The notes: generated by a model from the letters alone, not told the origin. A stretch of DNA of 64,000 nucleotides from Anaerolineae bacterium (GCA_022825675.1 JAJDWK010000096.1:11820-75819), one strand, 5' to 3'. Positions 41,885 through 47,934 are shown, numbered from the stretch's first letter. Program-made: numbers and translations.

Positions 41885-43057
41885 CTAGATGCTGGGACCA
41901 ACGCGGTGGATGGCGAAGCTGTTGTTGTCACGCAGCGCCTCGGACTTGGTCAAATAGCCATTGCAGACGCGCGCGACCTCGTCATAGACTATGCGCCCGG
42001 CTTCCGCCAGCGTCAGCTCGCCAGTGAAGACGCCGCTGACATCGACATCGACAGTATCGCGCATCAGCTCGTAGGAGCCGCGATTGCCAGTAACTTTGAC
42101 TGTCGGCATGATGGGATGGTTGGAAGTATGCCCGCCGCCCGTGCAGAAGGTGAGCACCTGGCAGCCCGCCGCCGCCATGCTGCTGATGCTCTCCGCGCCC
42201 ATGCCGGGACCGTACATCACATAATTGCCGGGCTCGCGGCTGGTTGGCGCTTCGGCGATTTCGAGATATTCGATGATGGCATCGCCGCCGATTTTTTTGA
42301 CTGCGCCCATGGATTTCTCTTCGATGGTGGTCAAGCCGCCCGCCATATTATCGCCCGTGGGCTGGGAGCCGCGGATGTCCTCGCCGCTGGCGAGGGCGCG
42401 GCGCTCCATGTGCTGGACGCCATCAAGGATGGCTTGGGCGACAGTGGGGCTGGCGGCTTTGTCAGTCAGCCAATTTTCGCAGCCCATCCATTCGGTGCAT
42501 TCCGCCATCAGCATGCGCCCGCCTTGGGCGATGAGAATTTCGCCGGCGATGCCATTGGCGGGGTTGCTCGCCAAGCCCGAAGTGGTATCGGAAGTGCCGC
42601 ATTCGGTGCCGAAGAGGATGTGGCTCATCGGCGCTGGTTCGCGCTGATGCAGGCTGATTTGCCGCGCGAAATCCTGGGCATAGCGGGTGGCTTTTTCGAC
42701 AGCGCTGATGAAGCCGCCAGCGCCGCGGATGTTGACAGTGGCGATGGGCTTGCCCGTCGGCGCGATATCTTCGGCGAGGTCGTCAGCGGTCATGCCCTCT
42801 TCTTTGAAATGGTCGATGATGACAACCGCGCCGACATTGGGGTTCATGGCGGTGCCAGCGAGGAAGCGGCGGGTCACGCGCAAATCGGGCGCGACTTGGC
42901 AGCGCCCATTGGCATGCGTGATGGGCACCGCGCCGTGGATGGTATCGGCGACGCGCTCGCAGACGCCATTGGCATAGACTGTGCCCGAGAGTATCAGCAG
43001 GTGGTTGCGCACCCCGACAGCGCCATCGGGGCGGTAATAGCCCATAAATTCTGACAT
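41885..43057 (-). CDS. UxaA family sugar-acid dehydratase, large (catalytic) subunit
   Basis: MSEFMGYYRPDGAVGVRNHLLILSGTVYANGVCERV... typical of the altronate/galactarate dehydratase C-terminal domain family. Confidence 0.85.
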   Translation of the reverse strand: MSEFMGYYRPDGAVGVRNHLLILSGTVYANGVCERVADTIHGAVPITHANGRCQVAPDLRVTRRFLAGTAMNPNVGAVVIIDHFKEEGMTADDLAEDIAPTGKPIATVNIRGAGGFISAVEKATRYAQDFARQISLHQREPAPMSHILFGTECGTSDTTSGLASNPANGIAGEILIAQGGRMLMAECTEWMGCENWLTDKAASPTVAQAILDGVQHMERRALASGEDIRGSQPTGDNMAGGLTTIEEKSMGAVKKIGGDAIIEYLEIAEAPTSREPGNYVMYGPGMGAESISSMAAAGCQVLTFCTGGGHTSNHPIMPTVKVTGNRGSYELMRDTVDVDVSGVFTGELTLAEAGRIVYDEVARVCNGYLTKSEALRDNNSFAIHRVGPSI

Positions 43058-43069
43058 GTTGTCTCCTTC

Positions 43070-43384
43070 CTATTCCGCGGCGACTTGGGCGCGCCCCGCG
43101 AGGTCGCCACGTCCGCGATTGCTTTCGACATTATGGGCATGCACATGCTCGCCAGCTTTGATATCGCGGCTGGCGGAGCCGATGCTGAGCCCGTATTTGA
43201 GCACGGTATCGCCGGCGGCGATGTCCATCAGGGCGATTTTGTGCCCATAGGCGATATCGGCGAGGGCGATGACTTCGAGGTCGCTGCGTTCGCCATTGCT
43301 GGCGACATGGTCGCCGGTGTGGATGGCTTCAAGCACGGCGGTGCCGACATTGTCGGTGGCGTAGACGACGAATACTTTTTTCAT
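43070..43384 (-). CDS. UxaA family dehydratase, small SAF-domain subunit
   Basis: ...DNVGTAV..., IAYGHKIALMDIAAGDTVLKYGLSIGSASRDIKAGEHVHAHN (SAF domain). Confidence 0.85.
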   Translation of the reverse strand: MKKVFVVYATDNVGTAVLEAIHTGDHVASNGERSDLEVIALADIAYGHKIALMDIAAGDTVLKYGLSIGSASRDIKAGEHVHAHNVESNRGRGDLAGRAQVAAE

Positions 43385-43451
43385 AGGGGGACCTTTCCGG
43401 GTGATTTAGAGAGTATCGTGACGAAATTTTGCTTAACGAAAACGACACAGG

Positions 43452-43493
43452 TATTTTCACCACAAAGAACACAAAGAACACAGCGAATTTCTG
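43452..43493 (-). repeat. Half-copy or variant of the CACCGAG-type repeat (R3)
   Basis: TATTTTCACCACAAAGAACACAAAGAACACAGCGAATTTC resembles the ATTCACCACAGAGACACTGAGGGCACAGAGATTTTC arm of R2. Lies at the edge of the R-M cassette. Confidence 0.55.
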
Positions 43494-43538
43494 ACTGCTC
43501 AGCGGAGTTTTCTATTCCATGAAATAAACTGCTTTCGA

Positions 43539-44432
43539 TTACGGTAGAGATGGGCGAAAAAGTGGTAAATTGAGTACACTCTGTTTTCCAAGCTCGATAT
43601 TTCCGTTCCAAATTTCGTCCAGATTTTCCGTAAAGCGATAGTCGTCGCGGAAGCGCGCGATAGCGTCAGCGGGACGAATTGCGCGCAGGCGCTCGCGGAT
43701 GCAGGCGGCATTATCCGGGTCAATCTCTACACCCAGCCCTGCCCGCCCCAACTGCTGGGCAACAACTAATGTCGTGCCTGTACCCGCGAAGGGATCAAAC
43801 ACCACATCGCCAGCCACCGTCGAGCTGAGCATTATGCGCAGCAGCAGGGCGATGGGCGCTTGCTGCTTGTGAAAGCGCATACCGTCGTCAGCGCGCAGGG
43901 CTTCGTCCCCAGCGAAATAGCCCGCTGTCAGCTCGCGTATGTCGTGCCAAATATCAGTAACATATAAGCCATTTTCGCGCTTGTGGCGATAATTTGCGGG
44001 CAGGGGCGGGTCAATGCGCAGGCGATGAAATACCCGCGCCCGCGGGCCTTTGGTGGCGTAGGCGATGATTTGATATTGCTTGCCAAAGCGCCGGCTCATG
44101 GGCACGGCGGATGTCAGCTTCTTCCAGATGATGAGGTTTTGCAGCGTCCAGCCGGTTTCGCGCAGGCAGGCAAGAACTTGCTCGCTGTTCTTCTCCCGCT
44201 GCATGAAATACACAGCGCCACCGTCAGCAGTCTGCGCACAGACGGCGCTGCAGACACGCTTCATCCAAGCCCAGTATTCGTCTGCGGGCATGTCGTCATT
44301 GTGCGAGGCGTAGTCTTTGGCTTGGTTAAAGGGGGGGTCAAGGAAGGTCAGGTTAAGCTCGCGCTCGGCAAAAGCGTCAGAAGCCAAAAAGTCGTTTATA
44401 TCATTTTGAAAAACGCGGCTAAGCTCACTCAT
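43539..44432 (-). CDS. Beta-class N6A/N4C DNA methyltransferase
   Basis: Motif IV LTFLDPPFN near the N-terminus and motif I VVFDPFAGTGTT near the C-terminus (IV-to-I order indicates beta class). Confidence 0.85.
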   Translation of the reverse strand: MSELSRVFQNDINDFLASDAFAERELNLTFLDPPFNQAKDYASHNDDMPADEYWAWMKRVCSAVCAQTADGGAVYFMQREKNSEQVLACLRETGWTLQNLIIWKKLTSAVPMSRRFGKQYQIIAYATKGPRARVFHRLRIDPPLPANYRHKRENGLYVTDIWHDIRELTAGYFAGDEALRADDGMRFHKQQAPIALLLRIMLSSTVAGDVVFDPFAGTGTTLVVAQQLGRAGLGVEIDPDNAACIRERLRAIRPADAIARFRDDYRFTENLDEIWNGNIELGKQSVLNLPLFRPSLP

Positions 44433-44568
44433 TATTTCTGAGTTTCAGTCGTATTGATAATGCCCCAGCAAATCATCGTCAATCATGCGCCTTCTGTTGA
44501 AGCACGATGAAGTGTGGGAGCCATCGCAAAGCTGACGCCACACACAAGGCCACAGCAGGCGGAGAAAT

Positions 44569-45378
44569 TCAATAGTTCTTGATGAAAAGTTCTTTTCCTT
44601 TTTCAGCCTTGCCTTGCATATAATTGTTCATCCCATATTGCAGCGTCCATTCGCTGATCTTCGCGAAGCTGAACAGGTCGCGGATTCGTGGCGAATCATC
44701 ATAAGTTATCAGCCACTTGTGCGGACAGCGGCGCATATTCTCGGCAAATCGTTCATGGTCAAATCCGGTGTGCAGCTTTCCATTGACGCCATAGAGCCGC
44801 GATTGCGTGGCTTTCCAATAAGGCGGGTCAAGGAAGATGAAGACTTTTTCTCCTGTCGCATGCAGCAGAGGCTCATAATCTCCGTGACAAATCTCGACCT
44901 CTTGCAGCAGCGGCTCAATCCGCCATAATCTGCCAATTGAGGATTGAGTGAAACGGCGTTCAAAAGCGTATTGCGAATAACCGCCCGAATCCACTACGCC
45001 GGAAAATGTGATGCGATTCAAGACAAAATACCGCGTCGCCCGCTGCAAATCACTTGTCATTGTGCCATCTGTGTGCAAGAAGCGCCAAAGTTCGCGCCCG
45101 TCATCATAGCAATCCTTAAACGATTGTACGCTTCGCGCCAAGTCGTCGAGATTTGTTTGCGCCGCCCGCCAGAAGTGGATGAGATCTTCGTTTAAGTCAT
45201 TTATCACATAGCGGCGTATGCGGCGTCCGAAGAGGCGTCGAATCGCCAGAAATACCGAACCGCCACCGATGAAGGGCTCGCGGTATTCTTCAATATGCGC
45301 GGGCACATGCTGGAGGATTTGCCTTATGGCGCGGGATTTGCCGCCGGGGTAACGCAGCGGACTTTTGGCAGCTTTCAT
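44569..45378 (-). CDS. Alpha-class (D12/Dam-like) DNA adenine methyltransferase
   Basis: LRYPGGKSR, motif I EPFIGGGSVF, motif IV FIFLDPPY. Confidence 0.9.
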   Translation of the reverse strand: MKAAKSPLRYPGGKSRAIRQILQHVPAHIEEYREPFIGGGSVFLAIRRLFGRRIRRYVINDLNEDLIHFWRAAQTNLDDLARSVQSFKDCYDDGRELWRFLHTDGTMTSDLQRATRYFVLNRITFSGVVDSGGYSQYAFERRFTQSSIGRLWRIEPLLQEVEICHGDYEPLLHATGEKVFIFLDPPYWKATQSRLYGVNGKLHTGFDHERFAENMRRCPHKWLITYDDSPRIRDLFSFAKISEWTLQYGMNNYMQGKAEKGKELFIKNY

Positions 45379-46511
45379 GAGTTTGGCGCGATTTCTATGC
45401 TGAGACCGTGGTTGGCAGCAGTTTCCTTATGTAACAGTTCAATAAGCTCACGCTTTGCCGGCCTCAATTCATTTCGGTCGGCAAAACGAGCAATTGCTGT
45501 TAGGTCATCATCTGGTAATTTCAAAGTATCCTTTACGTTGCCAGTTAGCTTAAGGCGAGTCATGAACTTTATCTGATTGTCACCCAGGTACAGTTCGTCG
45601 ACATTGTAAAACAGGATATTCTTGAAAAGACCATCTTGGATATCCGTCAGGGAGGGTAACCGTCCCCGCCCACTATTCTTTGACTCTTGGATTATCAGTG
45701 TATCGTTTTCCCAATATACTTCATCGGCGGTTACATGGTATATGCCGCCAAGATAATTCTTCAGTTCAAAGGTCGCTTTGCCACCATCCGCCAAGTGCTC
45801 CAATTCATGTGTAGTCATTGATTCCCTACGCGCGGCAGAGGCTGAACGCGGTACTGAACTTTCGCGGAACGCGTCAATGCTGAACTCGCCATTTACCAGA
45901 TATTTTTCAAGTATTTTCAAGTGGTTTTCGGCTGAATTCATCACTACATTATACCGCTTGCCAATTCTTTGATAGCATTCCACTGCATTTCGAAAGACAT
46001 TTTCGAAATCACGCTTAAAGTGCATACAGTTCCAATGTAAAGCTGTTGACTTGTAGCGCTTAACTTCGAGAATTCGTTCACGAACGAAAGCATTGTTGAG
46101 TCGTTGCTCTGTGATGCGGTTCGGAAGACTAGCATGAGGTTTCGCGCTTTCATACCAACTCAATAAAATGTACACATTCATCAAATTCATACGCGACAAT
46201 GTCATGAACATGATGCGGTCATTATTTAGCGTTCCAGAGCCTTCGTCCTTGATTAAAGGGATGACCGTTATTGGCTTTGGGAGATGGTATGTTCTGTAAA
46301 TTCGCGCTGACGGATACGAACGGCTGGGTTTAGGCGTTAGCCACTTGGATGCAGCAAGCGTTGTACCATCAGCAAATTCAATTATTCCCGACGACGGAGC
46401 AGAATTGATGTCAAATCCCTCATACTTCTCAGTCTTCAACGCCGAGCTATGAACAAGAGGATCATAATCAAGGTTGCGGATAACACCGCGCAAGTGTATT
46501 GCTTTAGCCAT
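45375..46511 (-). CDS. Putative restriction endonuclease (uncharacterised; C-terminal PD-(D/E)XK-like D...ESK)
   Basis: 378 aa and AT-rich. ATG at 46511 with SD GGGAGAA. 4-nt ATGA overlap with the Dam-like MTase gene. HVTADEVYWENDTLIIQESK resembles a D-X13-ExK nuclease core. No family recognised by eye. Confidence 0.5.
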   Translation of the reverse strand: MAKAIHLRGVIRNLDYDPLVHSSALKTEKYEGFDINSAPSSGIIEFADGTTLAASKWLTPKPSRSYPSARIYRTYHLPKPITVIPLIKDEGSGTLNNDRIMFMTLSRMNLMNVYILLSWYESAKPHASLPNRITEQRLNNAFVRERILEVKRYKSTALHWNCMHFKRDFENVFRNAVECYQRIGKRYNVVMNSAENHLKILEKYLVNGEFSIDAFRESSVPRSASAARRESMTTHELEHLADGGKATFELKNYLGGIYHVTADEVYWENDTLIIQESKNSGRGRLPSLTDIQDGLFKNILFYNVDELYLGDNQIKFMTRLKLTGNVKDTLKLPDDDLTAIARFADRNELRPAKRELIELLHKETAANHGLSIEIAPNS

Positions 46512-46524
46512 TTCAATTTCTCCC

Positions 46525-47934
46525 TCACCCAAACTGCGGCAGCCACTGCGCATTCGCCGCCAGCAGCTCCTCCAGCATCGCCCGCCCGGCGTCAATATCC
46601 CGCACCATCGGGTCCAGCAGCAGCGCCTGCAGCGCCAATTCGCGGTCGCCCGTCAGCGCCGCTTCTACATAAAGCTCGCTCAGCGCCAGCTCCCGCCGGC
46701 AGAGCTCGGCGATGGGCGCGGGCAGCGGCGGGCAGGCGTCGCCGAGGAAGCCCGCCCCGCTCACCGCGCCGGGCACTTCGACTATCGCATCCGCGGGCAA
46801 ATTTGTGATATAGCCACGGTTGGGGATATTCAGCTGGGGATGCGGCGTTTCGCGGTCATAGTGGGCGGCAGCCACCATTTCCGGGATGCCTTCGTCCAGC
46901 ATGCCGTGGCGGCTGAGGTCGCGCAGGCTGTCGACATCGACGCGCCCCGCGACAATATCACGCGCCAGCTTGCCGCGGTAGGCGCGGCGGCGACGGTTGC
47001 CCTCCCAGCTTTGCAGCTTGAGTTCATACTTCTTCCAGGGCTGCGCCACCGGGTCGCTGACCCAGGCGAGATATTCGCAGAGGTGGCTGTCGCCGGCGGT
47101 CGGCATCAAGCCATAAATCTCAAAGATGGCGCGGCTGAGCGGCTCAAAATCGCGCCGATACTGCTTCAGCCAGCGTTCGCGCAGCTCTGGATAGAGGTCT
47201 TCGCCCGTATGTTTATCGCGGATTTCGTAGACCCAGGAGAAATGGTTGATGCCACCCGCCTTGATTTCCAGGCGCTTCACCGCTTCTTGCGCCACCGAAA
47301 GGAAGGCGGGCATATTATCGGCGTCCGTATGCACATGGAAGCCCTCAGGCACGGCGATGCCCCAGCGCTCCGCCAGCACCGCCGCCGCCATCGTATAGCC
47401 CCAGAGCAGTTGATGGCACAAGCCAACAACTTTGATTTTGCTATGCCGATGCACGGCCGTGGTCAGCCGAATCAGCGGATTCACCAGATTGAGATAATAG
47501 GCATCGGGGCAGAGCGCCTCCATATCGCGGGCGATAGCCAATATCAGCGGCAGGTTGCGCGCGGTATGGGCGAAGGAGCCGGGACCGCCATTTTCGGCGT
47601 AAGGCTGCCGCAAGCCATGCCGCAGCGGGATGCGCCAATCACTCTCCCAGACTGCTTCGCGCTGCCCAACCTGGATCGACACCAGCACAAAATCGGCTTC
47701 GGGCAGCAGCTCACGGCGCTCGGTCGAAGCGCTGATGGTCATCTCGGCATGCCAGGCGCGGTTCATACTCTCGGCGAGCTGGCGGATGACCGCCAAGCCC
47801 TCGGCGTTGATATCACAGAGCGCCAGCTGCGCGCCCCGCATCGCCGGGTGCTGGATGATGGTGGAAAGCGCGCCTAAGCCGAAGATGGCGCTGCCCGCGC
47901 CGATGACCACTATTTTTGGAGGCTTGGTATTCAT
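46525..47934 (-). CDS. Glycoside hydrolase family 4 (NAD+/Mn2+-dependent alpha-glucosidase/galactosidase-like)
   Basis: KIVVIGAGSAIFGLG Rossmann start, ...KVVGLCHQ motif. Start among ATGs 47934/47946/47973. Confidence 0.85.
   Translation of the reverse strand: MNTKPPKIVVIGAGSAIFGLGALSTIIQHPAMRGAQLALCDINAEGLAVIRQLAESMNRAWHAEMTISASTERRELLPEADFVLVSIQVGQREAVWESDWRIPLRHGLRQPYAENGGPGSFAHTARNLPLILAIARDMEALCPDAYYLNLVNPLIRLTTAVHRHSKIKVVGLCHQLLWGYTMAAAVLAERWGIAVPEGFHVHTDADNMPAFLSVAQEAVKRLEIKAGGINHFSWVYEIRDKHTGEDLYPELRERWLKQYRRDFEPLSRAIFEIYGLMPTAGDSHLCEYLAWVSDPVAQPWKKYELKLQSWEGNRRRRAYRGKLARDIVAGRVDVDSLRDLSRHGMLDEGIPEMVAAAHYDRETPHPQLNIPNRGYITNLPADAIVEVPGAVSGAGFLGDACPPLPAPIAELCRRELALSELYVEAALTGDRELALQALLLDPMVRDIDAGRAMLEELLAANAQWLPQFG

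Follow-up and report, generated by a model that had tools for sequence, protein, structure and literature searches.

The 64,000-nucleotide stretch of Anaerolineae bacterium DNA analysed here (GCA_022825675.1, JAJDWK010000096.1:11820-75819), referred to as the window, carries a restriction-modification (R-M) cassette of three co-oriented minus-strand genes, which lies between a gene for a GH4 glycoside hydrolase and a pair of genes for a SAF-domain protein and a UxaA-like dehydratase. For brevity, the nuclease gene, the alpha-class methyltransferase (MTase) gene and the beta-class MTase gene of the cassette are termed R, A and B, and X denotes a nuclease-like gene that partners B elsewhere. We conclude that the locus is best described as a GGCC-type Type IIP R-M system, formed by R and A, together with an orphaned and probably isospecific methylase, B, and that it represents neither a Type IIS system nor a new nuclease family. 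The three open reading frames (ORFs) were found where a preliminary description, generated by a model from the sequence alone, had placed them, and its view of the locus as an R-M cassette is borne out. The features of the locus are the following.

45375..46511, minus strand: R, predicted SuaI-family Type II restriction endonuclease of 378 aa, with its ATG at 46511, an N-terminal dimerisation/recognition domain and a C-terminal PD-(D/E)XK domain (D263, E276, K278)
44569..45378, minus strand: A, alpha-class D12 MTase of 269 aa, of the M.CbeI / DmtB / M.Ssp6803II type (PF02086), predicted to make N4-methylcytosine (m4C) in GGCC (GGm4CC)
43539..44432, minus strand: B, beta-class N6_N4 MTase of 297 aa (DPPF ... 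FDPFAGTGTT; PF01555), here without its nuclease
43535..43579, minus strand: 15 codons left from the start of gene X (VYSIYHFFAHLYRNR), which overlap the 3' end of B; homology to a related locus, L013, ends at 43535
44433..44568, no strand: spacer of 136 nt from A to B, containing the deletion boundary of a sister strain at 44544
43407..43534, no strand: filler of 128 bp in place of X, including a fragment at 43444-43482 that resembles repetitive extragenic palindromes or miniature inverted-repeat transposable elements (REP/MITE-like)
46525..47934, minus strand: GH4 glycoside hydrolase gene, host flank (PF02056 and PF11975), its start at 47934 taken from where the orthologue alignments begin
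43070..43384, minus strand: SAF-domain gene, host flank, which in the empty site of a relative starts 18 nt past the GH4 stop
41885-43057: UxaA-like dehydratase gene, host flank, following the SAF-domain gene

The core system is R together with the alpha methylase A, and B is an add-on. Among the best 80 loci from 448 R relatives in species-representative genomes, a homologue of A directly follows R in all 80, and B is present in just 3/80; distant relatives of R likewise adjoin D12 methylases. Divergence is much faster in R, for which the 17 nearest loci of Chloroflexota show 52-77% identity, against 83-89% for A. The R family is under purifying selection, with a ratio of nonsynonymous to synonymous substitution rates (dN/dS) of ~0.17 in eight closely related loci, compared with 0.05 for A. 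The family is found frequently among sponge symbionts (Chloroflexota, Poribacteria) and also among cyanobacteria.

Sequence searches of Pfam, NCBIfam, PHROGs and the PDB with R returned no match, and the family has neither a Pfam model nor a solved structure. To this extent the protein is indeed without recognisable family, as had been noted at first. In PADLOC, however, it matches the REase_II profile PDLC03572 with E 1.3e-48 (residues 50-325 on profile positions 49-323 of 371) and the REase_II profile PDLC03474 with E 3.3e-18, and the further suggestion of an undescribed restriction-endonuclease family has to be given up. PADLOC derives its R-M profiles from REBASE sequences. Of 14 named control genomes, that of Sulfolobus acidocaldarius alone is matched by the two profiles. 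The sole described R-M system of this archaeon is SuaI/M.SuaI, with GGCC as its recognition sequence and GGm4CC as the protecting modification (PMC5809426, PMC10609329). Since both profiles single out the host of SuaI, R is best called a SuaI-family enzyme, and this profile-based assignment would point to GGCC independently of the methylase. A word-indexed search with R yielded 512 homologues, nearly all unnamed, and a profile search of 1.8 billion representatives yielded 481 R-family clusters at 50% identity. One of the representatives, the 371-aa protein P0382, was considered as SuaI itself and proved to be a marine metagenome protein. In three proteins of ~1000 aa (P0279, P0289, P0293), the R-family domain makes up the C-terminal 360 residues and a von Willebrand A domain lies in the N-terminal part.

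A relationship of R to CbeI, an enzyme cutting at GGCC, was also considered and rejected: comparison with the fetched C. bescii CbeI gave a BLASTP E of 1.1 and an hhalign probability of 0.1%, and none of 30 R-family members matched PF09556 (RE_HaeIII), even at E <= 5. The host genome gave no PF09556 match either, a null result which is uninformative because the control genomes gave none as well.

The earlier proposal of a PD-(D/E)XK-type restriction nuclease agrees with the sequence motif of R and, more weakly, with its predicted fold. Residues D263, E276 and K278 (D-x12-E-x-K) are invariant across 30 aligned homologues, in which an IPxxKDEG block and an HWN block are conserved as well. In the AlphaFold model (pLDDT, the per-residue model confidence, 90.8) the three residues lie on strands 257-268 and 271-279, and an exhaustive structural scan with residues 233-378 gave as its best matches the PD-(D/E)XK proteins XisH, AF1548, McrC, SduA, PaqCI, Can2 and BsoBI (Z 5.0-6.0). 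When two copies of R were modelled, a symmetric homodimer through the N-terminal domain was predicted, with an interface score (ipSAE) of 0.75 against 0.00 for the best control; the mark applied to this score is reached by 20/30 proteins whose solved structures are pairs of one chain and by 1/23 whose structures are single chains. The runs share at least 75% of their contacts, and the partner pLDDT is at least 86. R thus probably dimerises via its N-terminal domain, as modelled, which fits a palindromic site.

The alpha methylase points to the same target. A matches PF02086 (D12) with E 1.3e-36, the PADLOC MTase_II profile with 4e-120, a PADLOC orphan-MTase profile with 2.7e-91, and PDB entry 7M6B with E 3.2e-100 over residues 5-269. 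The protein in this entry is the M.CbeI enzyme of Caldicellulosiruptor bescii (PMC8616854). It is of the alpha class, carries a DPPY motif, makes N4-methylcytosine in GGCC, protects against CbeI and is grouped with DmtB of Anabaena; M.SuaI and M.PhoI, with which M.CbeI and DmtB are contrasted, are GGCC m4C methylases of the beta class (PMC3425538). For a further D12-domain enzyme, M.Ssp6803II (Sll0729), the product GGm4CC has been shown by knockout, single-molecule real-time (SMRT) and bisulfite sequencing (PMC6105098). By these homologies, A probably converts the inner cytosine of GGCC to N4-methylcytosine and so protects the host. The initial label of a Dam-like MTase is therefore apt for the fold, and probably not for chemistry and target, as the characterised relatives of the M.CbeI and M.Ssp6803II type make m4C in GGCC and not N6-methyladenine (m6A). 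Taken together, R and A very likely constitute a GGCC system.

B belongs to another class and, outside this locus, to another partner. It matches PF01555 with E 9.5e-34, its DPPF (motif IV) standing before FDPFAGTGTT (motif I); its best two PADLOC profiles (PDLC03299, PDLC03371) match 7-8 control genomes and are non-discriminating. In most Chloroflexota loci, A is followed by X, an ORF of 274-286 aa for which sequence searches of Pfam, PADLOC, PHROGs and the PDB gave no match. Gene order is R-A-B-X in L013, where X is a pseudogene with three stops, and B-X-R-A, with overlapping genes, in L077 and L080. A metagenome scan with X recovered 79 loci, most of them with B directly ahead of X and 61 without a match to R or A. 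In most of these 61, a homologue of B (55-85% identical) lies directly upstream of X, and those without a B match are mostly contigs ending just upstream of X. A motif of X, GGELIELK, is intact wherever B adjoins and changed in every locus lacking B (to GGELIKLK, GGEMVKIK or GGEFVEIID, for example). We read B-X as a second R-M pair. A "PD" upstream of the motif was considered as part of a catalytic site and dismissed, as many B-containing loci have FPF or FPY there. The structural model of X is mediocre (pLDDT 71), and its restriction-endonuclease-like matches to SwaI, EcoRV, NaeI and Hjc (Z ~4) stand among noise; it was not used as evidence.

The window retains the junction of this second pair. 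At the nucleotide level, the window and L013 are homologous across B and the initial 15 codons of X, as far as 43535, and again from 22 nt before the SAF start; the interval is occupied by a 781-bp X pseudogene in L013 and by 128 bp in the window. We are confident on these grounds that B is a relic of a B-X module. The repeat fragment reported earlier near 43452-43493 is real: positions 43444-43482 match a dispersed repeat of the CACCGAG/CACAGAG type, REP/MITE-like, with >70 short matches throughout the host genome (G000). This repeat lies exactly where X was lost and may have mediated the deletion.

Further arrangements of the four genes were observed outside the window. X follows R-A without B in L001:7999-8823, in L091:6684-7544 and in 13 other Chloroflexota loci, with an altered E-x-K motif and an intact ORF, and the same holds for L138, L140, L143, L153 and L157; eight closely related motif-altered copies have a dN/dS of ~0.23, close to that of R. 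This pattern suggests that motif-altered X beside R-A has been retained, possibly in a non-catalytic role, rather than decaying. At L117:1942-4828, a full-length relative of R (32% identical, with E-T-R for E-S-K) stands beside B-X without an alpha methylase. Only a C-terminal R fragment is found beside B-X at L111:3117-5471, again with no alpha methylase, and in L191 an R-family gene directly adjoins B-X without one. R, A, B and X appear to recombine freely.

Avoidance of GGCC accompanies both kinds of module. Of the 256 tetramers, GGCC is depleted most in the host genome, with 2382 sites and an observed-to-expected ratio (O/E) of 0.075, and around the two modules elsewhere it likewise ranks first in depletion. 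Pooling gives an O/E of 0.16 for 62 non-Chloroflexi R-A loci and of 0.43 for 18 such loci from Chloroflexota; for relatives that lack R the value is 0.67. In the 61 loci with X and no match to R or A (B-X-only loci), it is 0.11, with 105 sites observed against 976 expected, and the same value is obtained from the flanks alone; of the 32 with flanks long enough for a test, 27 have an O/E below 0.3. Among 5-mers and 6-mers without GGCC, none is nearly as depleted in these loci on comparable counts. Because GGCC is the most depleted word there and no GGCC-free 5-mer or 6-mer comes close, GGCC is favoured, by a modest degree of confidence, as the target of B. The host genome also strongly avoids ACGT (O/E 0.12) and GATC (0.24) and contains ACTAGT once; its R-M load is unusually heavy.

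Comparison with relatives, as the preliminary description had proposed, identifies the cassette as an insertion. In G002, a genome of the same genus, GH4 and SAF are just 18 nt apart; GH4 orthologues in same-genus genomes are 81-87% identical. R was found in 8/24 sampled genomes of the genus, at 48-77% identity to the R of the window. The same spot between GH4 and SAF holds R-A-B and the X pseudogene in L013, and a broken R with A and X in G012, and in L001 the order R-A-X lies upstream of the same SAF-UxaA pair with different upstream neighbours. In the G012 contig (G012:C19, L091:8418-9543), R is split into two frames and A is intact and 89% identical to the A of the window, a case of nuclease loss with methylase retention. 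The locus also occurs in public sponge metagenomes. A near-identical strain from another sponge sample in a second study (DNA run X3) has a contig with GH4-R-A-SAF, in which window positions 43388-44543, that is B and the filler, are replaced by 52 nt. This sister strain keeps R without B, so B is dispensable there. The GC content is 0.444 in R, 0.510 in A and 0.562 in B, compared with 0.61-0.64 in the flanking genes, and the third-position values (GC3) are 0.46, 0.57 and 0.64 compared with 0.73-0.78. The cassette as initially characterised, namely AT-rich, is thus AT-rich in R and A, whereas B is intermediate.

The junctions described at the outset, an ATGA overlap of R and A and a 13-nt gap between the GH4 stop and R, are both seen in the sequence. 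The gap separates the TGA of GH4 from the ATG of R, and a Shine-Dalgarno sequence, GAGGGAG, overlaps the GH4 stop. A scan for promoters and terminators gave signals no higher than shuffled expectation. Metatranscriptome contigs of the sample lacking B cover A and R, and one of them crosses the GH4-R junction (46106-46582), which is compatible with read-through transcription from GH4 into R.

These observations can be combined into one account, which we consider likely as a whole: an intact GGCC system of R and A, and B left over from a B-X module. Two Type II R-M modules lie side by side, inserted into the gap of 18 nt between GH4 and SAF in a GH4-SAF-UxaA operon for sugar acids. R, as a homodimer, would probably cut unmethylated GGCC via its C-terminal PD-(D/E)XK site (D263, E276, K278). 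Its translation appears to start from the Shine-Dalgarno sequence at the GH4 stop, and that of A to be coupled through ATGA; transcription of the two is probably by read-through from GH4. The second module is a remnant, X having been deleted in this strain beside the REP/MITE-like repeat, with B now solitary. If B also targets GGCC, the locus would be the decayed product of two isospecific systems. Of this account, the genes present, their homologies, the pairing of R with A, the insertion, the loss of X and the variation of B between strains are established by the sequences; specificity for GGCC in this organism, the m4C product, the dimer, co-transcription and the target of B are inferred. 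More tentatively, and with rather less confidence than doubt, one may go further and propose that B-X forms a widespread and so far undescribed R-M family specific for GGCC, and that the window records the outcome of a merger of two isospecific systems at one site, in which one nuclease was lost and both MTases, one of each class, were kept on one target; motif-altered X, still under purifying selection beside R-A in sister lineages, would hint at a new, non-catalytic role.

Several points weigh against this account. The link from R to SuaI is indirect, as it goes through a profile matching the genome of the SuaI host and not through an alignment with SuaI. Furthermore, the structural matches of R are weak (Z 5-6), and Foldseek found nothing in the PDB for the R model at E <= 0.001. 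Specificity of such enzymes can shift at ~60% identity. The extreme avoidance of GGCC is not creditable to the cassette alone, because the sponge-associated host genome of 3.66 Mb carries many other methylase genes: ~27 of PF01555, 5-6 of PF02086 and one of PF00145 (5-methylcytosine, m5C). Within the genus, in 17 samples of 5-20 kb, GGCC O/E is unlinked to the presence of R (0.30-0.74 with R, 0.27-1.02 without), a comparison that in our view argues neither way because avoidance outlives systems. RNA libraries can contain DNA, so that contigs from them are no proof of transcription. Finally, the DPPF motif of B and its adenine-methylating relatives argue against a cytosine target; its best NCBIfam and PDB matches are the YhdJ-like PRK11524 (4e-26), M.BceJIV (4e-20) and CcrM (3e-18).

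This last point is the basis of an alternative in which B, as an unrelated m6A methylase, would be left over from a B-X system whose site contains adenine, and would now be solitary or regulatory and without any link to GGCC. Besides motif IV and the adenine-methylase matches, it can draw on a host genome full of beta-class methylases and on the six-base palindromes GTCGAC and GGATCC, which are also low in B-X loci (O/E 0.20 and 0.23, on counts of 8). No word is, however, nearly as depleted in the B-X-only loci as GGCC, and B-X recurs beside R-A modules of the GGCC type. Moreover, a DPPY motif can go with m4C, as in the family of A (PMC3425538). We therefore regard an adenine target of B as unlikely, albeit one to be taken seriously.

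Improbable, by a clear step, is an arrangement like that of DpnII, in which both MTases would act on one palindromic site and B would have a special task within one system with R, for instance on DNA that is single-stranded or incoming. The strong depletion of GGCC around R-A and B-X modules alike would suit such an arrangement, as would the existence of both alpha- and beta-class GGCC m4C methylases (PMC3425538) and the R-family genes that sometimes adjoin B without A (L117). Against it, B is found in hardly any R-A locus and not in the sister strain, its conserved neighbour is X and not R, and the X remnant in the window shows that B came as part of B-X. The preliminary description had offered a DpnII-like scheme as one of its two options; its idea of two MTases on one palindromic site may be right by accident, given the depletion of GGCC around both modules, whereas origin and conservation differ from DpnII.

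Still less probable is that R is inactive or repurposed and the locus effectively consists of two solitary methylases. Such a state is exemplified by G012, with its broken R and intact A at the same site, and by M.Ssp6803II and DmtB, which are solitary regulators in cyanobacteria (PMC6105098). The R of the window, by contrast, is full length and keeps all invariant residues; the low dN/dS of the family, the adjacency of R and A in all 80 loci and the coverage of R by contigs from RNA libraries speak against inactivity as well. The other option first put forward, a single three-gene system with a conserved pair of MTases, alpha and beta, one for either strand of an asymmetric, Type IIS-like target of the 378-aa nuclease, has in its favour three co-oriented, tightly spaced genes with MTases of different classes and the R-A-B order recurring in one relative (L013), but it is scarcely credible, since R-A stands without B in 77/80 loci and in the near-identical strain, the characterised relatives of A act on the two strands of the GGCC palindrome alike (PMC6105098), the prediction of an R homodimer held up against its controls, and B normally sits in a B-X module with X as its own usual partner.

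The preferred reading of an intact R-A system beside a relic methylase has practical consequences. The annotation of R would change from "hypothetical protein" to SuaI-family restriction endonuclease, and that of A from "DNA adenine methylase" to predicted GGCC N4-cytosine methylase. GGm4CC would be expected when these organisms are transformed or their methylomes are read. The B-X pair and motif-altered X are candidates for a new restriction-enzyme family and offer a way to study the consequences of an encounter between two systems of like specificity; these less ordinary leads, the B-X family and the motif-altered X beside R-A, lie mostly outside the window.

Among known systems, DpnII (DpnM of the alpha class, DpnA of the beta class and R.DpnII; GATC) resembles the locus in the presence of an alpha and a beta methylase by one nuclease, possibly for one palindromic site. 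Its three genes form a conserved unit, however, whereas B is accessory here and lies beside the remnant of its own nuclease. M.Ssp6803II and DmtB are D12-type enzymes of one family with A, their GGm4CC target proven (PMC6105098); they are solitary and regulatory, in contrast to A, which is coupled to a nuclease in every one of the 80 loci. With SuaI/M.SuaI (Type IIP, GG/CC) the locus shares the profiles matched by R, the same predicted target and predicted m4C protection, and the genome of S. acidocaldarius avoids GGCC, with 570 sites (PMC5809426), as the host genome does. M.SuaI is reported to be of the beta class (PMC3425538) and A, the conserved partner of R, is of the alpha class; the likeness of R to SuaI is one by profile. 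Furthermore, the host here is a mesophilic sponge-associated bacterium of the Chloroflexota and that of SuaI a thermoacidophilic archaeon. With CbeI/M.CbeI (GG/CC) the locus shares the type of methylase. A is a full-length homologue of M.CbeI with DPPY and FxGxG motifs, and the order of nuclease followed by methylase is the same; CbeI, a 326-aa RE_HaeIII enzyme (PF09556) encoded directly upstream of M.CbeI, is unrelated to R. Methylases of the M.CbeI type thus pair with two unrelated nucleases, a HaeIII-like one in Caldicellulosiruptor and a SuaI-like one in the present locus, which clearly exemplifies the swapping of modules between R-M systems.

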